This document shows, one piece after another, positions 8,402-19,373 of a DNA stretch of 19,373 nt. Within the stretch, counting starts at the first letter, position 1. Each line of letters opens with the position of its first letter. The notes beneath the pieces were generated by a model, which saw only the letters and a program-made list of their open reading frames with translations, did no database searches and was not told the DNA's origin. Position numbers and translations under genes: made by a program. Origin of the DNA: a virus (lineage: Duplodnaviria > Heunggongvirae > Uroviricota > Caudoviricetes); the IMG/VR virus record IMGVR_UViG_2617270959_000004; one strand, 5' to 3'.

Positions 8402-9145
8402 ATGACCACACCAAATCCACTGGCAAAGACGAAAGGTGCGGGGACGACGTTCTGGATGTATACCGGCAACGGCGATGCGTTTGCGAACCCTTTGTCGGAC
8501 ACTGACTGGCTGCGTCTTGCGATGGTGAAGGATCTGCAACCTGGCGAAATGACCGCTGATGCAGAAGATGACACTTATCTCGATGATGAAGATGCAGACT
8601 GGAAAACGACAACCCAGGGGCAGAAATCCGTTGGTGATACTTCGGCGACGCTGGCCTGGCGTCCGGGTGACAGCGGGCAGAAAAAACTGGTTCAGTTGTT
8701 CGACTCCGGTGAAGTCTGCGCGTTTCGTATCAAATATCCCAACGGCACTGTTGATGTTTTCCGTGGCTGGCTGAGCTCACTGGGTAAAACCATTGCCTCA
8801 AAAGACGTGATGACCCGCACTGTGAAAATCAGCGGTGTGGGGCGTCCGTATCTGGCAGAGGAAGGCACTGAAACCGTGAGCGTTACCGGGCTGACAGTAT
8901 CACCGGCGTCTGCCAGTGTAAAAGTGGGAGCAACCACCACGCTGACCTTTACAGTAAAACCTGACGGAGCCAGTGACAAAGCGATCAGTGTGCATTCGTC
9001 AGATCCACAGACTGCCACGGTTACCCTGAACGGACTTGTGGCCACGGTAAAAGGCGTGAAGCAGGGCAGTGTCAGCATTGTGGGCATGACCGCTGACGGG
9101 AATTTTGTGGCTGTGACTGCGGTGACTGTCAGCGCAGCAGGTTAA
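8402..9145 (+). CDS. V: Major tail protein V with C-terminal Ig-like domain
   Basis: AGGAGG 6 nt upstream; translation closely matches remembered lambda gpV (VKGAGTT, YLDDEDADW, NGTVDVFRGW...). Confidence 0.92.
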   Translation: MTTPNPLAKTKGAGTTFWMYTGNGDAFANPLSDTDWLRLAMVKDLQPGEMTADAEDDTYLDDEDADWKTTTQGQKSVGDTSATLAWRPGDSGQKKLVQLFDSGEVCAFRIKYPNGTVDVFRGWLSSLGKTIASKDVMTRTVKISGVGRPYLAEEGTETVSVTGLTVSPASASVKVGATTTLTFTVKPDGASDKAISVHSSDPQTATVTLNGLVATVKGVKQGSVSIVGMTADGNFVAVTAVTVSAAG

Positions 9146-9165
9146 CAGGACGATACTCATCATTT

Positions 9166-9189
9166 GCCCCGGTTATGCGGGGCTTTTTT
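9166..9189 (+). terminator. Candidate intrinsic terminator/attenuator between V and G
   Basis: GCCCCG-GUUAUG-CGGGGC hairpin followed by six T, 21 nt after the V stop. Confidence 0.55.
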
Positions 9190-9205
9190 GCAGGTGGAGA
9201 ACATG

Positions 9206-9592
9206 ATGTTTCTGAAACAGGACACGTTTAATTATGAAAAACAGTCCGTGGTGCTCAGTGAGCTGTCCGGGCTGCAGAGAATTGAATATCTGACGTTTGT
9301 TCAGCAGCGAACGGCAAAGTTTTATGCCGTGGAGGGAGAACTGCCGGAGGCTGAACGACAGATTGCTTTTCTGCGGATGGGGATGGATATCAATGCCTGG
9401 CTGGTTTCCCGCTCACTGTGGAATGCGGATCAGTCTAAGGATGTAGAGACGCTTTGCGCATCCGTTATTACAACATGGTCGTATGATGCCCTGGGTGCGG
9501 GGGCGGAGATGGTTCTGTCGCTGAGCGGTATGGGGGCCATTGATAATGCCGTGGATGATGAGCATGAGGCGCTGACGCCGGAAAAGTCCTGA
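9206..9592 (+). CDS. G: Tail assembly chaperone G
   Basis: GGAG at 9196-9199; begins MFLK... like lambda gpG; 128 aa; stop TGA 9590-9592. Confidence 0.85.
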   Translation: MFLKQDTFNYEKQSVVLSELSGLQRIEYLTFVQQRTAKFYAVEGELPEAERQIAFLRMGMDINAWLVSRSLWNADQSKDVETLCASVITTWSYDALGAGAEMVLSLSGMGAIDNAVDDEHEALTPEKS

Positions 9593-9930
9593 CGCGGGAA
9601 ATGCAGTTTGTCATGCGGCTTGCCCGGGAGTTCCGGCGGGCAGACTGGCGGCGGATGCTGTCGGAAATGTCGGCCACTGAGCTTGGTGAGTGGGGCGATT
9701 ATTTCCGGATGCAGAGCTTCAGTGATGTGTGGATGGATGCGCAGTTTGCCTCGCTGAAGGCATTGATCGTGAGAATGGTGTCCGGCAGCAGTGATGCTGC
9801 GGTGGCTGATTTCAGCCTTTTACCGGAAGAGAACGGGATACCGGAGCGAACGGACGAAGAACTGATGCATCTTGGGGAAGGTATTTCCGGAGGTGTGCGT
9901 TATGGACCAGATAGCCAACCTGGTCATTGA
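9568..9930 (+). CDS. T: Tail assembly protein T reading frame, expressed as a G-T fusion by -1 frameshift
   Basis: The -1 frame is open only from 9568 (TGA at 9565-9567) and overlaps the last 22 nt of G; no independent SD; arrangement is that of lambda G/G-T. Confidence 0.7.
   Translation, partial: GADAGKVLTREMQFVMRLAREFRRADWRRMLSEMSATELGEWGDYFRMQSFSDVWMDAQFASLKALIVRMVSGSSDAAVADFSLLPEENGIPERTDEELMHLGEGISGGVRYGPDSQPGH
9580..9586 (+). other. Candidate -1 frameshift (slippery) heptamer G GAA AAG for G-T
   Basis: It is the only A-rich heptamer within the 22-nt G/T overlap; lambda uses G GGA AAG at the equivalent place. Confidence 0.5.
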
Positions 9931-12900
9931 TTTGGGGATTGATGCGGCAGAGTTTAAAAATGAAATTCCCCGTATCAAAAACCTTCTGAATGGTGCAGCC
10001 AGCGATGCAGAACGGTCTTCTGCCCGTATGCAGCGTTTTATGGAGCGTCAGACTCAGGCCGCCCGGCAGACAACGCAGGCAGCTTCTTCGGCTGCAACAG
10101 CCGCATCCGTCCATGCGCAGACGGTGGAGAAGAACGCACAGGCTCATGAACGCATGGCCCGCGAGGTGGAGAAAACCCGCCAGCGCATGGAGGCACTGAG
10201 CCAGAAAATGCGCGAGGAACAGGCGCAGGCCATCGCTCTGGCGGAGGCTCAGGATAAAGCGGCTGCTGCGTTTTATCGTCAGATTGACAGTGTGAAACAG
10301 GCCAGTGCGGGGCTGCAGGAATTACAGCGTATTCAGCAGCAGATCCGACAGGCCAGAAACAGTGGCGGGGTTGGTCAGCAGGATTATCTGGCGCTGATTT
10401 CTGAGGTTACGGCGAAAACCCGTGTTCTTACGCAGGCTGAGGCAGAGGCTACCCGACAGAAAGTGGCGTTTATCCGTCAGCTTAAAGAGCAGGCAACCCG
10501 CCAGAATCTTTCTTCTTCTGAGTTGCTTCGTGCCAGGGCTGCCCAGCTGGGGGTAAGCAGTGCTGCAGAAGTGTATATCCGCAAAATGGAGCGGGCAGGA
10601 AAAGCCACGCATTCGCTGGGTCTGAAAAGTGCAGCGGCCCGCCAGGAGATAGGCGTTCTGATAGGTGAACTGGCCCGCGGCAATTTAGGGGCGCTGAGGG
10701 GATCCGGGATAACGCTGGCTAACCGTGCCGGATGGATAGACACACTGATGTCACCGAAAGGCATGATGCTGGGCGGGGTTATTGGCGGTATTACCGCGGC
10801 CGTCTATGGTCTGGGTAAAGCCTGGTATGACGGTCAGAAGGAGGGGGAAGAATTTAACCGCCAGCTGTCGCTGACGGGGCATTATGCCGGAGTCACTGCC
10901 GGGCAGCTGTGGACGCTCAGTCGTGCTATTTCCGGGAATGGTATCACGCAACATGCTGCAGCCGGTGCGCTGGCTCAGGTGGTGGGGAGTGGTGCATTTC
11001 GTGGAAACGATATCGGTATGGTGGCGAGAGCTGCCGCACAGATGGAGCGATCGGTTGGCCAGTCGGTCAGCGATACCATAAATCAGTTTAAGCGGCTGAA
11101 GGATGATCCTGTAAATGCCGCGAAGTCTCTGGACAATGAGCTGCATTTTCTTACTGCCACTCAGCTTGAGCAGATACGCGTCCTTGGAGAGCAGGGGCGG
11201 TCCAGTGATGCGGCACGGATAGCCATGTCTGCACTGGCAGAGGAAACCGGTCGGCGTACTGCGGATATTGATAATAACCTCAATGCGCTGGGCAGTACGC
11301 TGCAAACTTTGTCTGACTGGTGGAAGCAGTTCTGGGATGCGGCCATGAATATTGGTCGTGAAGATTCGCTGGATGCGCAGATTGCCACTTTGCAGGAGAA
11401 AGTGTCGCGGGCGAAAAGACTCCCCTGGACGGCATCATCTTCTCAGGTTGAATACGATCAGCAGCGTCTTAACGATCTTCAGGAGAAAAAACGCCAGAAG
11501 GATTTGCAGGATGCAAAAGAGCAGGCAGAGCGGAATTATCAGGAGCAACAGAAACGCCGTAATGCTGAAAATGCTGCACTGAACCGGATGAATGAAACGG
11601 AAGCTGCACGACATCAGCGTGAAATTGCGCGTATTAATGCCATGCAGTACGCCGATCAGGCTGTCAGGGATGCGGCGATACAACGTGAAAATGAACGTTA
11701 CGAGAAAGCCCTGGCATCCGGTAAGAAAAAAACACGCGAAACCCGTAATGATGAGGCCACCCGGTTATTGCTGCAGTACAGTCAGCAACAGGCACAGGTG
11801 GAAGGACAGATTGCTGCTGCCAGACAGTCAGCAGGCATTGCCACGGAAAGGATGACAGAAGCGCATAAACAGCTCCTGGCTCTGCAGCAGCGCATCAGCG
11901 ACCTGGACGGGAAAAAACTGACGGCAGATGAAAAGAGTGTGCTGGCCCGTAAAGATGAACTGATTCAGGCACTGACGCTGCTGGATGTAAAACAGCAGGA
12001 GCTTCAGAAACAGACGGCACTCAACGAGCTGAAGAAAAAAACAATTCAGCTGACCAGTCAACTGGCTGAAGAAGAGCGCGCTCAGCGTCAGCAACATGAC
12101 CTGGATATCGCCACGGTGGGTATGGGTGATCAGCAGCGACAGCGATATCAGGTACAACTGAGTCTTCGCCAGAAATACCAGCAACAGCTGGAGCAGTTGA
12201 GGCGGGATAGTGAGCAGAAAGGGACATATAACACGGATGACTACAGAAAGGCCGAGCAGGCGCTGACGGAGAGCCTGAACCGACAACTGAATGAGAATCG
12301 CCGTTACTGGCAACAGCTTGAAGTTGTGCAGGGTAACTGGAAAAACGGAGTCCTGCGTGCATTTCAGGATTTTACCGTGGATGCAGATAATACGGCAGAA
12401 ACAGCAGAACAGGTGTTCTCGTCAGCCTTCAGCAACATGGGAAATGGCCTGGCAACTTTTGTCACTACCGGCAAACTCAATTTCAAATCCTTCACCTCTT
12501 CTGTGCTGTCAGATATGGCGAAAATCCTGGCGCAGGCAACCATGATGAAATCGATAAAAGGGATTGGCAGTGTACTGGGATTTGATCTCAGCAGCCTTTC
12601 CCTGAATGCCAATGGGGGGATTTATCAGTCTGCTGATTTGAGTCGTTACAGTGGCACGGTGGTTAACCGTCCGACGTTTTTTGCTTTTGCAAAAGGCGCG
12701 GGTGTGATGGGGGAAGCGGGACCTGAAGCCATTCTGCCATTGCGTCGTGGTGCTGACGGTAAGCTGGGGGTTGTGGCGGATATTGGGGGTTCAGGTATGG
12801 CGATGTTTTCCCCGCAGTACAACATCGAGATCAATAACGATGGCACGAACGGGCAGATAGGTCCGGCTGCCCTGAAGGCGGTTTATGACCTCGGGAAAAA

Positions 12901-12967
12901 AGCGGCAGCGGACTTTATGCAACAGCAGGCCCGTGATGGTGGTCGGTTAAGTGGAGCATATCGGTAA
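9902..12967 (+). CDS. H: Tail tape measure protein H (1021 aa)
   Basis: GGAGG at 9889-9893; long Ala/Gln/Arg-rich coiled-coil-like protein; C-terminal region resembles lambda gpH; located between G-T and M. Confidence 0.9.
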   Translation: MDQIANLVIDLGIDAAEFKNEIPRIKNLLNGAASDAERSSARMQRFMERQTQAARQTTQAASSAATAASVHAQTVEKNAQAHERMAREVEKTRQRMEALSQKMREEQAQAIALAEAQDKAAAAFYRQIDSVKQASAGLQELQRIQQQIRQARNSGGVGQQDYLALISEVTAKTRVLTQAEAEATRQKVAFIRQLKEQATRQNLSSSELLRARAAQLGVSSAAEVYIRKMERAGKATHSLGLKSAAARQEIGVLIGELARGNLGALRGSGITLANRAGWIDTLMSPKGMMLGGVIGGITAAVYGLGKAWYDGQKEGEEFNRQLSLTGHYAGVTAGQLWTLSRAISGNGITQHAAAGALAQVVGSGAFRGNDIGMVARAAAQMERSVGQSVSDTINQFKRLKDDPVNAAKSLDNELHFLTATQLEQIRVLGEQGRSSDAARIAMSALAEETGRRTADIDNNLNALGSTLQTLSDWWKQFWDAAMNIGREDSLDAQIATLQEKVSRAKRLPWTASSSQVEYDQQRLNDLQEKKRQKDLQDAKEQAERNYQEQQKRRNAENAALNRMNETEAARHQREIARINAMQYADQAVRDAAIQRENERYEKALASGKKKTRETRNDEATRLLLQYSQQQAQVEGQIAAARQSAGIATERMTEAHKQLLALQQRISDLDGKKLTADEKSVLARKDELIQALTLLDVKQQELQKQTALNELKKKTIQLTSQLAEEERAQRQQHDLDIATVGMGDQQRQRYQVQLSLRQKYQQQLEQLRRDSEQKGTYNTDDYRKAEQALTESLNRQLNENRRYWQQLEVVQGNWKNGVLRAFQDFTVDADNTAETAEQVFSSAFSNMGNGLATFVTTGKLNFKSFTSSVLSDMAKILAQATMMKSIKGIGSVLGFDLSSLSLNANGGIYQSADLSRYSGTVVNRPTFFAFAKGAGVMGEAGPEAILPLRRGADGKLGVVADIGGSGMAMFSPQYNIEINNDGTNGQIGPAALKAVYDLGKKAAADFMQQQARDGGRLSGAYR

Positions 12968-13296
12968 TGGAGACGTTTCACTGGAAAGTGCGCCCGGATA
13001 TGAATGTGGTATCAGAGCCGAAAGTGGTGACAGTGAAGCTGGGCGATGGTTATGAACAGCGTCGTGCGGCGGGACTGAATAACCAGTTGTCGACTTACAG
13101 CGTGACGATACGTGTTCGTAAATGTGAACACCCATCTTTAAAAGCCTTTCTGGAACGGCACGGTGGCGTCCGTGCATTTCAGTGGACGCCACCTTATGAC
13201 TGGAAACCGATCAGGGTGGTTTGTCGTAAATGGTCGGCAAGCGTGGGGGCGCTGTGGGTAACCATAACGGCAGATTTTGAACAGGTCGTGGCATAG
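12967..13296 (+). CDS. M: Minor tail protein M
   Basis: TAATG overlap with the H stop; translation aligns with remembered lambda gpM over its full length. Confidence 0.92.
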   Translation: METFHWKVRPDMNVVSEPKVVTVKLGDGYEQRRAAGLNNQLSTYSVTIRVRKCEHPSLKAFLERHGGVRAFQWTPPYDWKPIRVVCRKWSASVGALWVTITADFEQVVA

Positions 13297-13305
13297 GAGG
13301 CTCTG

Positions 13306-14004
13306 ATGCAGGATATTCCACAGGAAACACATCATGAGACGACACGCCTCACTCAGTCAGCCCAGGTGGTGCTCTGGGAAATCGATCTGACAGAGGTCGG
13401 TGGTGAACGTTATTTTTTCTGTAATGAGCAGAACGAAAAAGGTGAGCCGGTTACCTGGCAGGGGCGGCAGTATCAGGCATACCCCATTCAGGGGACGGGA
13501 TTTAAACTGAACGGCAAGGGCAGTGCTGCCCGTCCGACACTGACGGTTTCTAACCTGCACGGAATGGTCACCGGGATGGCGGAAGACCTGCAGAGTCTGG
13601 TCGGCGGAACGGTGGTCAGGCGTAAGGTTTACGCCCGTTTTCTGGATGCGGTGAACTTCGTCAACGGAAACAGTGACGCCGATCCGGAGCAGGAGGTGAT
13701 CAGCCGCTGGCGCATCGAGCAGTGCAGCGAACTGAGCGCGGTCAGTGCCTCTTTTGTACTGTCCACGCCGACGGAAACGGACGGTGCTGTTTTTCCGGGG
13801 CGCATCATGCTGGCTAATACCTGCACCTGGACCTATCGCGGTGATGAGTGCGGTTATCACGGTCCGGCGGTCGCGGATGAATATGACCAGCCGACGTCCG
13901 ATATCACGAAGGATAAATGCAGCAAATGCCTGAGTGGTTGTAAGTTTCGCAATAACGTCGGCAACTTTGGCGGCTTCCTTTCCATTAACAAACTTTCGCA
14001 GTGA
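13306..14004 (+). CDS. L: Minor tail protein L
   Basis: GGAGG upstream; translation is nearly identical to remembered lambda gpL. Confidence 0.95.
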   Translation: MQDIPQETHHETTRLTQSAQVVLWEIDLTEVGGERYFFCNEQNEKGEPVTWQGRQYQAYPIQGTGFKLNGKGSAARPTLTVSNLHGMVTGMAEDLQSLVGGTVVRRKVYARFLDAVNFVNGNSDADPEQEVISRWRIEQCSELSAVSASFVLSTPTETDGAVFPGRIMLANTCTWTYRGDECGYHGPAVADEYDQPTSDITKDKCSKCLSGCKFRNNVGNFGGFLSINKLSQ

Positions 14005-14009
14005 ATCCC

Positions 14010-14753
14010 ATGACAGAGACAGAATCAGCGATTCTGGCGCACGCCCGGCGATGTGCGCCAGCGGAGTCGTGCGGCTTCGTGGTGAGAACACCGGAGGGGG
14101 AAAGATATTTTCCCTGCGTGAATATCTCCGGTGAGCCGGAGGAGTATTTCCGGATGTCGCCGGAGGACTGGCTGCGGGCAGAGATGCAGGGTGAGATTGT
14201 GGCGCTGGTCCACAGCCACCCCGGTGGTATGCCCTGGCTGAGTGAGACCGACCGGCGGCTGCAGGTGCAGAGTGATTTGCCGTGGTGGCTGGTTTGCCGG
14301 GGAGCGATTCACAAGTTCCGCTGTGTGCCACATCTTTCCGGGCGGCGCTTTGAGCACGGGGTGACGGACTGTTACACGCTGTTCCGGGATGCTTACCATC
14401 TGGCGGGGATTGAGATGCCGGATTTTCATCGCGAGGATGACTGGTGGCGTAACGGTCAGAATCTCTATCTGGATAATCTGGAGGCCACAGGGCTGTATCA
14501 GGTGCCGTTGTCAGCGGCGCAGCCGGGCGATGTGCTGCTGTGCTGTTTTGGTTCATCGGTGCCGAATCATGCCGCCATTTACTGTGGTGACAGCGAGCTG
14601 CTGCACCATATTCCTGAACAACTGAGCAAACGAGAGAGGTACACCGACAAATGGCAGCGACGCACACACTCCCTCTGGCGTCACCGGGCATGGCACGCAT
14701 CTGCCTTTACGGGGATTTACAACGATTTGGCCGCCGCATCGACCTTCGAGTGA
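14010..14753 (+). CDS. K: Tail tip assembly protein K (MPN/JAMM + NlpC/P60 domains)
   Basis: JAMM motif HSHP at 14211-14222 with downstream S..D; NlpC/P60-type Cys at 14370-14372 and His further on; start could instead be GTG 14001; 3' end overlaps I by 103 nt. Confidence 0.88.
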   Translation: MTETESAILAHARRCAPAESCGFVVRTPEGERYFPCVNISGEPEEYFRMSPEDWLRAEMQGEIVALVHSHPGGMPWLSETDRRLQVQSDLPWWLVCRGAIHKFRCVPHLSGRRFEHGVTDCYTLFRDAYHLAGIEMPDFHREDDWWRNGQNLYLDNLEATGLYQVPLSAAQPGDVLLCCFGSSVPNHAAIYCGDSELLHHIPEQLSKRERYTDKWQRRTHSLWRHRAWHASAFTGIYNDLAAASTFE

Positions 14754-15298
14754 AAACGGGGTCCGAAGCCATCCGGGCGCTGGCCATGCAGATCCCGGCG
14801 TTTCGTCAGAAACTGAGCGACGGCTGGTACCAGGTACGCATTGCCGGGCGTGATGCCGGTGAAACCGAATTGTCTGCCCGTCTTAATGAGCCGCTGGCAA
14901 ATGGTGCCGTGATCCACATCGTGCCGCGTCTGGCGGGAGCTAAAAGTGGCGGTGTGTTTCAGGTGGTGCTGGGGGCGGCGCTGATTGCGGTGGCATGGTG
15001 GAACCCTGTGGGCTGGCTGGGAGCCGCGGCTGTATCGGGTATGTATGCGGCAGGGGCCAGTATGATCCTGGGCGGAGTGGCGCAGATGCTGGCACCGAAA
15101 GCCAGGACGCCCACGGCAGCAAGTACAGATAACGGCAAACAGAACACCTATTTCTCCTCACTGGATAACATGGTTGCCCAGGGCAATGTTCTGCCCGTTC
15201 TGTACGGTGAAATGCGCGTGGGGTCGCGGGTGGTCTCTCAGGAGATCAGCACGGCAGACGAAGGGGATGGTGGTCAGGTTGTGGTGATTGGTCGCTGA
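14651..15298 (+). CDS. I: Tail tip assembly protein I
   Basis: MAATHTLPLASPGMARICLYGDL... matches remembered lambda gpI; hydrophobic Gly/Ala-rich central segment. Confidence 0.9.
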   Translation: MAATHTLPLASPGMARICLYGDLQRFGRRIDLRVKTGSEAIRALAMQIPAFRQKLSDGWYQVRIAGRDAGETELSARLNEPLANGAVIHIVPRLAGAKSGGVFQVVLGAALIAVAWWNPVGWLGAAAVSGMYAAGASMILGGVAQMLAPKARTPTAASTDNGKQNTYFSSLDNMVAQGNVLPVLYGEMRVGSRVVSQEISTADEGDGGQVVVIGR

Positions 15299-15316
15299 TG
15301 AAAAACGTTTTATGTG

Positions 15317-15336
15317 AAACCGCCTCCGGGCGGTTT
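15317..15336 (+). promoter_or_regulatory. Stem-loop in the I-J intergenic region, terminator-like attenuator candidate
   Basis: AAACCGCC-UCCG-GGCGGUUU 8-bp stem followed by UGUCGUUU, 19 nt after the I stop and 23 nt before the J start. Confidence 0.3.
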
Positions 15337-15358
15337 TGTCGTTTATGGAGCGTTAGGA

Positions 15359-18300
15359 ATGGGTAAAGGCAGCAGTAAGGGGCATACTCCGCGCGAAGCG
15401 AAGGACAACCTGAAGTCCACGCAGTTGCTGAGTGTGATCGATGCCATCAGCGAAGGGCCGGTTGAAGGTCCGGTAGATGGATTAAAAAGCGTGCTGCTGA
15501 ACAGTACGCCAGTGCTGGACATTGAGGGGAATACCAACATCTCCGGCGTCACGGTGGTGTTCCGGGCCGGTGAGCAGGAGCAAACACCGCCGGAGGGATT
15601 TGAATCCTCCGGCTCCGAGACGGTGCTGGGTACGGAAGTGAAATACGACACGCCGATCACCCGGACCATCACGTCGGCAAACATTGACCGACTGCGTTTT
15701 ACCTTCGGCGTGCAGGCACTGGTGGAAACCACCTCAAAGGGGGACAGGAATCCGTCGGAAGTCCGCCTGCTGGTTCAGATACAACGTAACGGTGGCTGGG
15801 TGACGGAAAAAGACATCACCATTAAAGGCAAAACCACCTCACAGTATCTGGCCTCGGTGGTGGTGGGTAACCTGCCGCCGCGCCCGTTCAATATCCGGAT
15901 GCGCAGGATGACGCCGGACAGCACCACAGACCAACTGCAGAACAAAACGCTCTGGTCGTCATACACCGAAATCATCGATGTGAAACAGTGCTACCCGAAC
16001 ACGGCACTGGTTGGCGTGCAGGTGGACTCGGAGCAGTTCGGCAGCCAGCAGGTGAGCCGTAATTATCATCTTCGCGGGCGCATTCTGCAGGTGCCGTCGA
16101 ACTATAACCCGCAGACGCGGCAATACAGCGGTATCTGGGACGGAACGTTTAAGCCGGCATACAGCAACAACATGGCCTGGTGTCTGTGGGATATGCTGAC
16201 CCATCCGCGCTACGGCATGGGGAAACGTCTTGGTGCGGCAGATGTGGATAAATGGACGCTGTATGTCATCGGCCAGAATTGCGACCAGTCGGTGCCGGAC
16301 GGCTTTGGCGGCACGGAGCCGCGCATCACCTGTAATGCGTACCTGACCACGCAGCGTAAGGCGTGGGATGTGCTCAGTGATTTCTGCTCGGCGATGCGCT
16401 GTATGCCGGTATGGAACGGGCAGACGCTGACGTTCGTGCAGGACCGACCGTCGGATAAGGTGTGGACCTATAACCGCAGTAATGTGGTGATGCCGGATGA
16501 TGGCGCGCCGTTCCGCTACAGCTTCAGCGCCCTGAAGGACCGCCATAATGCCGTTGAGGTGAACTGGATTGACCCGGATAACGGCTGGGAAACGGCAACA
16601 GAGCTTGTGGAGGACACGCAGGCCATTGCCCGTTACGGTCGTAACGTCACGAAGATGGATGCTTTTGGCTGTACCAGCCGGGGGCAGGCACACCGCGCCG
16701 GGCTGTGGCTGATTAAAACGGAACTGCTGGAAACGCAGACCGTGGACTTCAGCGTGGGCGCAGAAGGGCTTCGCCATGTACCGGGCGATGTCATTGAAAT
16801 CTGTGATGATGACTATGCCGGTATCAGCATCGGTGGTCGCGTGCTGGCGGTGAACAGCCAGACCCGGACGCTGACGCTCGACCGTGAAATCACGCTGCCA
16901 TCCTCCGGTACCACGCTGATAAGCCTGGTTGACGGAAGTGGCAATCCGGTCAGCGTGGAGGTTCAGTCCGTCACCGACGGCGTGAAGGTAAAAGTGAGCC
17001 GTGTTCCTGACGGTGTTGCTGAATACAGCGTATGGGGGCTGAAGCTGCCGACGCTGCGCCAGCGTCTGTTCCGCTGTGTGAGTATCCGTGAGAACGATGA
17101 CGGTACGTATGCCATCACTGCCGTGCAGCATGTACCGGAGAAAGAAGCCATCGTGGATAACGGGGCGCACTTTGACGGTGACCAGAGCGGCACGGTGAAT
17201 GGTGTCACGCCGCCAGCAGTGCAGCACCTGACCGCAGAAGTCACTGCAGACAGCGGGGAATATCAGGTGCTGGCGCGATGGGACACACCGAAGGTGGTGA
17301 AGGGCGTGAGCTTCCTGCTTCGCCTGACCGTGGCAGCGGATGACGGCAGTGAGCGGCTGGTCAGCACGGCCCGGACGACGGAAACCACTTACCGCTTCAC
17401 ACAACTGGCTCTGGGGAACTACAGGCTGACAGTCCGGGCAGTAAATGCGTGGGGGCAGCAGGGCGATCCGGCGTCGGTATCGTTCCGGATTGCCGCACCG
17501 GCAGCGCCGTCGCGGATTGAGCTGACGCCGGGCTATTTTCAGATAACCGCCACGCCGCATCTTGCGGTTTATGATCCGACGGTACAGTTTGAGTTCTGGT
17601 TCTCGGAAAAACGGATTGCTGATATCAGGCAGGTTGAAACCAGCGCGCGTTATCTTGGTACGGCGCTGTACTGGATAGCCGCCAGTATCAATATCAAACC
17701 GGGTCGTGATTATTACTTTTATATCCGCAGTGTGAACACCGTCGGCAAATCGGCATTCGTGGAGGCTGTTGGTCGGGCGAGCGATGATGCGGAAGGTTAC
17801 CTGGATTTTTTCAAAGGCCAGATAACCGAATCCCATCTCGGCAAGGAGCTGCTGGAAAAAGTCGAGCTGACGGAGGATAACGCCAGCAGACTGGAGGAGT
17901 TTTCGAAAGAGTGGAAGGACGCCAGTGATAAGTGGAATGCCATGTGGGGCGTCAAAATTGAGCAGACCAAAGACGGCAAACATTATGTCGCGGGTATTGG
18001 CCTCAGTATGGAGGATACAGAGGAAGGCAAACTGAGTCAGTTTCTGGTTGCCGCCAATCGTATCGCGTTTATTGACCCGGCAAACGGGAATGAAACGCCG
18101 ATGTTTGTGGCGCAGGGCAACCAGATATTCATGAACGACGTGTTCCTGAAACGCCTGACGGCCCCCACCATTACCAGCGGCGGTAATCCTCCGGCATTTT
18201 CCCTGACACCGGACGGGCGGCTGACGGCGAAAAATGCCGATATCAGCGGTAACGTGAATGCGAACTCCGGGACGCTCAACAACGTCACGATTAACGAAAA

Positions 18301-18754
18301 CTGTCGGGTTCTGGGAAAACTGTCCGCCAACCAGATTGAAGGCGATCTCGTTAAAACAGTGGGCAAAGCTTTCCCCCGGGACTCCCGTGCACCGGAGCGG
18401 TGGCCATCAGGGACCATTACCGTCAGGGTTTATGACGATCAGCCGTTTGACCGGCAGATTGTTATTCCGGCGGTGGCATTCAGCGGCGCTAAACATGAGA
18501 AAGAGCATACTGATATTTACTCCTCATGCCGTCTGATAGTGCGGAAAAACGGTGCTGAAATTTATAACCGTACCGCGCTGGATAATACGCTGATTTACAG
18601 TGGCGTTATTGATATGCCTGCCGGTCACGGTCACATGACGCTGGAGTTTTCGGTGTCAGCATGGCTGGTAAATGACTGGTATCCCACAGCAAGTATCAGC
18701 GATTTGCTGGTTGTGGTGATGAAGAAAGCCACCGCAGGCATCAGTATCAGCTGA
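15359..18754 (+). CDS. J: Central tail fibre / host specificity protein J
   Basis: GGAG at 15347-15350; 1131 aa; N-terminal ~980 residues nearly identical to remembered lambda gpJ; C-terminal ~150 residues diverged. Confidence 0.95.
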
Positions 18755-18772
18755 ATTTTATAACCCATATAC

Positions 18773-18798
18773 GGGCGCCAGAAATGGCGCCTTTTTTA
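18773..18798 (+). terminator. Intrinsic terminator downstream of J
   Basis: GGCGCC-AGAAAU-GGCGCC perfect 6-bp GC stem followed by six T, 20 nt after the J stop. Confidence 0.7.
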
Positions 18799-18821
18799 TT
18801 GCAGAAAAGCGAGAGGTAATT

Positions 18822-19373
18822 ATGCGTAAAGTTTGTGCAGCCATTTTGTCCGCAGCCATCTGTCTGTCCGTATCCGGTGCGCCTGCATGGGCATCTGAAC
18901 ATCAGTCCACGCTGAGCGCGGGGTATCTTCATGCCTCGACGAACGTTCCCGGCAGCGATGATCTTAACGGGATTAACGTGAAATACCGTTATGAGTTTAC
19001 GGACACACTGGGGCTGGTGACGTCATTCAGCTATGCAGGAGACAAGAATCGCCAGCTTACCCGTTACAGCAATACCCGCTGGCATGAAGATTCCGTGCGT
19101 AACCGCTGGTTCAGCGTGATGGTGGGGCCGTCTGTGCGCGTGAATGAATGGTTCAGCGCGTATGCGATGGCGGGTATGGCTTACAGCCGTGTGTCGACTT
19201 TTTCCGGGGATTATCTCCGCGTAACTGACAATAAGGGGAAAACGCACGATGTGCTGACCGGAAGTGATGACGGTCGCCACAGCAACACGTCTCTGGCGTG
19301 GGGAGCTGGCGTGCAGTTTAACCCGACCGAATCCGTGGCCATTGATATTGCTTATGAAGGCTCCGGCAGTGGT
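18822..19373 (+). CDS. lom: Lom-family (Ail/PagC/OmpX-like) outer membrane protein, 3' end outside window
   Basis: GAGAGG SD 5 nt upstream; signal-peptide-like N-terminus ending AWA; aligns with remembered lambda Lom ([25 protein letters not shown]); frame is open to the window edge, so it is absent from the ORF track. Confidence 0.88.

Follow-up and report, generated by a model that had tools for sequence, protein, structure and literature searches.

An Exchanged C-Terminal Module in Tail Tip Protein J of a Lambdoid Prophage Carries a Receptor-Binding Domain Nearly Identical to That of the OmpC-Using Chimera 1A2

Introduction

Host-range hybrids of phage lambda, such as h434 and h80, date from the 1970s. 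In tail tip protein J (gpJ), a 'specificity region' (residues 960-1132) has been described that is modular, with a phylogeny independent of the remaining J, and whose lineages are marked by indels at residues 1012, 1048-49, 1077-78, and 1107 (Maddamsetti et al. 2018, PMC6646904). Structures of lambda gpJ are available for the closed state (8xck) and the LamB-bound state (8xcj; PMC11101478), in which four 'bottom loops L1-L4' are inserted into LamB, and the gpJ of A8 has been solved in the closed state (9wca) and bound to the OmpC of strain EDL933 (9wcb).

[quoted passage not shown] Nature 2024, PMC11338833). In that study, chimera 1A2 delivered DNA independently of LamB and in an OmpC-dependent manner, being efficient with EDL933 OmpC but not with MG1655 OmpC, while A8 worked with both, and 21 of the 23 OmpC variants were served by one or both chimeras. 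In a later preprint, 1A2 particles target O157 strains via OmpC (10.1101/2025.02.28.640725). OmpC is also used by the natural lambda-like tip of phi330, from an EHEC isolate, and by that of Gifsy-1.

This study describes the J gene of a tailed virus genome fragment in which a diverged C-terminal domain is found on a lambda-type backbone. The locus is an instance of the specificity region and shows no conceptual difference from it. The feature is already known, both the modularity of the region (PMC6646904) and receptor-changing swaps, engineered and natural, together with the OmpC specificity of this particular allele (PMC11338833), so that conceptually nothing new is claimed. The additions are local: the crossover zone of this genome is located exactly, its allele is identified and linked to one with a characterised receptor, and the occurrence of that allele is counted.

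Materials and Methods

The window, that is, the whole stretch of DNA analysed, comprises 19,373 nt of IMG/VR record IMGVR_UViG_2617270959_000004, and all features given below lie on its plus strand unless stated otherwise. The reference for lambda J was OM418625 (1132 aa), which was globally aligned with the window J. Whether the divergence reflected a swap or local change was judged from sliding-window DNA identity and mismatch maps. Tip classes were taken from 243 phage records. Most sequences from a large protein search were gene fragments of at most 301 aa, and frameshifted ones were removed before modelling with AF2. For the census, complete Escherichia coli genomes (n = 5426) were searched with the window tip (nt 18305-18754) as query.

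The recoded genes of chimeras 1A2 and A8 are printed in the supplement of Brödel et al. (PMC11338833). They are given as recoded DNA, and a search for protein motifs (WPSGT and others) was therefore without a match. The 1A2 sequence came from a PDF whose conversion by machine had introduced indels, and a frameshift-tolerant alignment was therefore used; plain tblastn split the match over three frames.

Results and Discussion

Gene J and Its Divergence from Lambda J

Gene J, encoding the tip attachment or host specificity protein, is intact and occupies 15359..18754 (1131 aa), as judged from its open reading frame, translation, Pfam matches, and gene order. It begins with the ATG at 15359 and ends with the stop codon at 18752-18754; the program-made reading frame opens earlier, at a GTG (15314). 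From the N- to the C-terminus the Pfam domains are FNIII-A_GpJ (residues 86-207), Phage-tail_3 (330-496), Ig_J (610-714), Ig_J_second (716-818), Phage_Tail_Tip (845-972), and Ig_GpJ_C (1001-1131), all with scores far exceeding their cut-offs, and together they make up the complete gpJ architecture, with hub domains at the N-terminus and the receptor-binding domain (RBD) at the C-terminus. The order of the tail operon, K and I homologues followed by J and then lom, was evident from the window reading frames and from the annotation of a 99.9% identical prophage of E. coli 300033. Architecture, backbone identity, and operon position (with lom and the side tail fibre gene following) are all those of a lambda-type tip attachment protein J (central tail fibre/baseplate hub).

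The first-pass annotation had described the first ~980 residues of J as nearly identical to lambda J, with a sharp divergence from about residue 983 (nt ~18305). Both statements were borne out by the alignment with the reference, in which residues 1-982 differ at 20 positions (962/982 identical, 98.0%) and residues 983-1131 at 86 of 149 (42% identity), so that the C-terminus of J is far from being as conserved as the rest. The breakpoint with the maximal chi-square lies after residue 982 (chi2 = 472, none of 300 permutations as high, Fisher p = 7.5e-68), and the predicted position was exact: the codon of residue 983 begins at nt 18305, and the megablast match to lambda (95.8% nucleotide identity over 2991 nt) ends at query base 2991, which is window position 18304. 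The three motifs named as surviving beyond the breakpoint were also all present, WPSGT at residues 1015-1019, DRQIV at 1031-1035, and DMPAG at 1085-1089, and they are the same in lambda.

Three parts of J can accordingly be distinguished. The lambda-type backbone (residues 1-935, 15359..18163), with 95.8% nucleotide and ~98% amino acid identity to lambda J, includes the hub domains, the FNIII domains, the helical shaft, and most of the straight fibre. It is followed by the 5' part of the exchanged module (18164..18304), a fibre segment conserved at the protein level, in which a crossover zone (18164-18183) was located from the mismatch maps of VT1-Sakai and lambda. The diverged RBD itself (residues 983-1131, with Ig_GpJ_C at 1001-1131) corresponds to 18305..18751, and is supported by the identities, the PF12421 match, the AF2 model, and the match to 1A2. 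Two further reading frames overlap 18300-18754, one at 18037-18417 on the opposite, minus strand and one at 18258-18536 on the plus strand but out of frame with J; both lacked a family match and were rejected as spurious.

Just 3' of the J stop codon is a putative terminator-like hairpin with a T-run (18773..18800; one site against 0.3 expected in a consensus scan), and then a gene of the lom family of outer-membrane proteins (18822..19373; Pfam Ail_Lom, E = 5e-109), which runs off the end of the window. It represents a non-lambda allele, sharing ~50% nucleotide identity with lambda lom and 93-98% with the lom of phage 2H10, and in the comparison with lambda it is linked to the exchanged module.

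The C-Terminal Domain

The diverged part of J matched Pfam family PF12421 (Ig_GpJ_C, 'Tip attachment protein J, C-terminal receptor binding domain') with 128.3 bits against a cut-off of 26.2, and over the entire profile (positions 1-135 of 135). A sequence search of the PDB with the window tip retrieved A8 gpJ (9wca/9wcb, E = 1.4e-99) and lambda gpJ (8xcj/8xck, E = 3e-79). The AF2 monomer model of the tip is all-beta, a beta-sandwich with a mean pLDDT of 82, and its four best Foldseek matches were 9wca, 8xcj, 8xck, and 9wcb (E from 1e-19 to 2e-21), including the entry 'A8 gpJ 713 with OmpC from E. coli EDL933', with the next match at 3e-4. The structure prediction suggested by the first-pass annotation thus gave an Ig-like domain closest to the solved A8 and lambda tips, and the swapped part, as modelled, is an intact C-terminal RBD of gpJ with the Ig-like sandwich fold.

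Variable and indel columns, both within and across tip classes, fall in four stretches of this domain, which match the lineage-marking sites 1012, 1048-49, 1077-78, and 1107. Cluster 1 (residues 1007-1014, 18377..18400) aligns with lambda residue 1012 and appears as a loop between strands in the model. Cluster 2 (residues 1044-1053, 18488..18517) was recognised from the alignments and the model as a probable distal hairpin at the published 1048-1049 indel site (PMC6646904), and carries a 5-residue insertion in the A8 class. Cluster 3 (residues 1074-1078, 18578..18592), identified in the same way, is a probable distal turn at the 1077-1078 site of the same study. Cluster 4 (residues 1103-1110, 18665..18688), seen in the alignments and the mismatch map, has a one-residue deletion relative to lambda; within it, the D1106 codon (18674-18676) aligns with lambda D1107 and is polymorphic (D/N/G) within the allele class.

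In the AF2 model the chain, followed strand by strand, comes alternately to its fibre-proximal and its distal end. By this strand order, which is that of a monomer model, clusters 1-4 would be the distal turns, and would match the lambda bottom loops L1-L4, respectively. The motifs WPSGT, DRQIV, and DMPAG, as well as an invariant NG, occupy invariant turns or the ends of strands; by the same reasoning they would form the fibre-proximal side and the framework of the domain, which would account for their survival between classes.

The likeness to the lambda gpJ RBD (8xck, 8xcj; PMC11101478) extends to the same fibre, the Ig-like C-terminal domain, the framework motifs (WPSGT, FDRQIV, NG, DMPAG, KK..GIS), and presumably the mechanics of the trimeric fibre. 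The two differ in sequence (42-43% identity) and at all four loop clusters, with the one-residue deletion of the window tip placed next to lambda residue 1107, and while the lambda domain binds LamB, that of the window is assigned to OmpC, as argued below. The A8/2H10 tip, of the same family and fold, is the closest solved structure (sequence E = 1.4e-99, Foldseek E = 2e-21), with OmpC as its receptor. On either side of the RBD, in the fibre and the C-terminal tail, it matches the window sequence fully or almost so, but the RBD identity is only 63%, and the A8 tip lacks 4 residues in cluster 1 in addition to having the 5-residue insertion in cluster 2.

Allele Classes and the Match to 1A2

At least four tip classes were seen among the phage records. 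The window class (≥88% identity to the window RBD) comprises ~57 records, including VT1-Sakai, the PPompW prophages, long-tailed Stx1a/Stx2a phages, 2G7b, and several PhiR phages. A second class, 2H10 and its relatives, shares 58-64% identity with the window RBD, the lambda class 43%, and a fourth class (mEp460, WGPS6, and 2851) 39-41%. In pairwise terms, the amino acid identity of the window RBD was 42-43% to lambda, 63% to A8, and 98-99% to VT1-Sakai, PhiR5_1, and 2G7b. With this identity, four differing loop clusters, and a deletion beside lambda 1107, the window tip falls outside the LamB-binding lambda class.

The supplement sequences allowed these classes to be connected to the chimeras with known receptors. 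The A8 tail does not match the window but matches 2H10, whose tip shares 100% identity with PDB chain 'A8 gpJ 713'. The 1A2 tail was identical to the window at 193 of 201 readable codons, with 11 codons unreadable, so that identity cannot be claimed for each single residue. Of the eight mismatches, six make stop codons or resemble errors of PDF conversion, leaving two credible differences, D1106 (N in 1A2) and S1129 (T in 1A2), both of which coincide with natural polymorphisms. The tip of VT1-Sakai, 99% identical to that of the window, has N and T at these positions, as in 1A2.

Judged by sequence, then, the window tip is essentially the 1A2 gpJ allele, and the same RBD allele is carried by VT1-Sakai (Sp15), by PPompW, and by the long-tailed Stx1a/Stx2a prophages of EHEC. 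Like the window J, the 1A2 construct presents this tip on a lambda-type backbone; it is engineered, with its junction at residue 964 and a donor part of residues 965-1132 in lambda numbering, while the window J is natural, with a junction at codon ~936-942, and the two are further distinguished by D1106/N and S1129/T.

Receptor Assignment

The reading that best fits these data is that J carries an exchanged module with a tip of the 1A2 class, recognising OmpC and not LamB, to which we give a probability of about 0.85. The change in receptor specificity that the first-pass annotation had proposed is supported by this near-identity, 1A2 being LamB-independent and OmpC-dependent. Alignment with lambdoid J proteins of known receptor, one of its suggested checks, likewise placed the tip with OmpC-using 1A2 and not with the LamB-binding lambda allele. 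The receptor is thus very probably OmpC, as predicted from the characterised allele.

By this reading the RBD would sit at the tip of the trimeric central tail fibre, and its four distal loops would be inserted into the trimeric porin OmpC rather than into LamB. Binding to OmpC would then trigger a rearrangement of the fibre and opening of the tail as in lambda. The sequence of events assumed from the lambda model is that the three RBDs spread, the fibre twists, and the tail opens; the fibre above the RBD is 98-100% identical to that of lambda.

It could be argued that the tip, while of the 1A2 class, has had its specificity shifted by D1106 and S1129, either to other OmpC variants (for example, of the K-12 type) or to a porin such as OmpF. 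The lambda counterpart of residue 1106 is 1107, a site at which mutation is required before lambda can use OmpF (PMC6646904), the D/N/G polymorphism is reflected in large protein clusters (P0004 with D, 1940 members; P0005 with G, 4135 members), and A8 and 1A2 already accept different OmpC variants (PMC11338833). Against this, the remaining domain is essentially identical to that of 1A2, and in lambda single changes at the site were insufficient for a change of receptor, at least four mutations being needed (PMC6646904), so that such a shift is improbable. With D in place of N at a known specificity hotspot (lambda D1107), the range of OmpC variants could nevertheless differ from that of 1A2. 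A tentative suggestion, on balance doubtful, is that the D/N/G series at 1106 and S/T at 1129 provide natural fine-tuning, setting which OmpC variants each prophage can use, and that the range given by D1106 differs from that of 1A2, possibly including K-12-type OmpC or another porin.

A tip that still binds LamB, its divergence being neutral or of an immune-escape kind, would be in keeping with the fold and framework motifs held in common with the lambda RBD, and some natural relatives, such as phi21, do use LamB. However, the identity to the lambda RBD is just 42-43%, all four loop clusters differ, the near-identical 1A2 was screened on lamB-deleted recipients and reported to use OmpC and not LamB (PMC11338833, 10.1101/2025.02.28.640725), and the closest solved relative is OmpC-bound, all of which make retention of LamB very improbable.

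OmpC as the receptor finds weak circumstantial support in the PhiR phages with this tip, none of which (0/6) lists K-12 as host. Papers on the origin of the PhiR phages, which are ECOR-derived, were searched for, and none was found that gives their receptors. Phage phi330 was considered as direct evidence for the window allele and set aside: its closest relative, WGPS6, has a tip of the fourth class, ~40% identical to that of the window.

Module Exchange

The DNA-level comparisons revealed a clear mosaic pattern. Lambda and the window are nearly identical, with sparse mismatches, up to nt 18151; mismatch density climbs from 18184, and identity drops from >94% to ~50% across 18165-18300. The divergence from lambda does not end with J, as ~50% nucleotide identity persists from 18305 past the stop codon, across the intergenic DNA and lom, as far as the window reaches. 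VT1-Sakai shows the converse pattern, with dense mismatches to 18163, followed by just four in 18164-18420. The upstream J DNA of VT1-Sakai and PhiR5_1 is only 55-75% identical to the window (25-45% diverged), but identity climbs to ~99-100% from 18164 and ~18255, respectively, and PhiR5_1 is ~100% identical to the window from ~18255 to 18884. A cassette pattern was seen with phage 2H10, which is 93-100% identical to the window on both flanks, and differs only inside 18345-18700.

The foreign tract therefore starts, at the DNA level, at nt 18164-18183 (codon ~936-942), ~45 codons upstream of the protein divergence, since the proteins remain alike across the fibre segment that precedes the domain. 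The domain swapping that the first-pass annotation had proposed is well supported, as J genes with strongly diverged upstream parts share ~99% identity with the window over the last ~590 nt of J, and the cause of the divergence is module exchange, not local decay. From the mosaic pattern, the exchanged unit is a cassette bounded by conserved DNA. An origin in place, by point mutation speeded up under diversifying selection and with no recombination, would draw on the known fast evolution of the specificity region under such selection (PMC6646904), but has negligible probability given ~590 nt of ~99% identity in phages with upstream J DNA 25-45% diverged, an abrupt jump in silent-site divergence from lambda J, and the reciprocal 2H10 cassette with conserved flanks on both sides.

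Under the module exchange reading, the 3' end of J (from ~nt 18164) would be a horizontally exchanged specificity module, encoding an intact Ig-like RBD of a non-lambda allele class. The cassette may move between lambdoid phages by homologous recombination in conserved flanks, of which the upstream one would be fibre-coding DNA, and the downstream one the conserved C-terminal coding stretch of J together with the J-lom spacer and lom.

Occurrence in E. coli

Positions 710-19373 of the window are 99.9% identical to a prophage adjoining ydfJ (a Qin-type site), which is found in many human isolates. The lambda-like part of the prophage in the window is confined to the tail module, the head module being of the cdtI/mEp460 type. 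An IS1 element is inserted in the small-terminase-like gene of the window prophage, and J may therefore not currently serve the production of infectious particles.

Tip DNA of the window class was present in 3385 of the 5426 complete E. coli genomes (~62%), with a median of two copies per genome and mostly 95-99% identity. The lambda tip was found by megablast in 98 of the 5426 (~2%), in all cases with ≥99% identity, and the window allele was not among these matches. In E. coli, the window-type tip is the norm and that of lambda the outlier. The description of the J C-terminus as 'diverged' on a lambda-like backbone holds relative to lambda, but is a lambda-centred view, since the window allele is common in E. 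coli and that of lambda rare. The LamB-binding tip of lambda is accordingly the exception among its natural relatives, and the receptor of this E. coli prophage family, which is very common, may be called from sequence alone (OmpC, probably in EDL933-like variants). Several of the sampled carriers of the lambda tip were laboratory or K-12-derived strains.

Discussion

The head and packaging module of the prophage (925-6713), which specifies a large terminase of 699 aa, a portal protein, and an ORF in which a ClpP-like protease is fused to the major capsid protein, is not lambda-like, but of the same type as in phages cdtI and mEp460. The resemblance to lambda is confined to the tail module, so the 'lambda-like backbone' of the first-pass annotation is a label that fits only J, the tail-tip host specificity gene, and the other tail genes.

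Among the J-tip classes, the fourth shares 39-41% identity with the tip of the window and is about five residues longer. It is frequent in Stx2c/Stx1a phages and occurs also in mEp460 (NC_019716), with WGPS6 (NC_049945) and phage 2851 (FM180578) as further examples. Since WGPS6 has been reported as the nearest relative of phi330, a phage that uses OmpC, this class may be OmpC-specific as well.

The J gene of the Stx1 prophage VT1-Sakai (983-4455 of its record), which has the same tip as the window, is annotated as two truncated ORFs separated by a mutation. Its product is therefore probably non-functional, although the tip sequence has been conserved.

Downstream of the J stop codon, at a distance of 19 nt, a GC-rich hairpin with a trailing T-run (18773-18800) resembles an intrinsic terminator between J and the outer-membrane protein gene lom. 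The latter (18822-19373) is another non-lambda allele, sharing about 50% of its nucleotides with lambda lom and 93-98% with the lom gene of phage 2H10. Compared with VT1-Sakai, PhiR5_1, and 2G7b it is a mosaic, identity dropping to 72-79% around 18800-19100.

The 5' end of the window lies within an IS1 element (1-709, ending in its terminal inverted repeat), and the match to intact prophages begins exactly at 710. IS1 has inserted into the small-terminase-like DUF1441 gene directly upstream of the large terminase, cutting off all but the last 62 codons (728-916), so that the prophage of the source genome is probably packaging-defective; J is intact despite this insertion. The element encodes InsA (45-272) and InsB, the latter in two pieces (191-484 and 485-694), as a TAG stop at 482-484 breaks the insB reading frame (...EVVV*, then MTDGW...). 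The stop stands where canonical IS1 carries a Trp codon, so this copy may itself be inactive.
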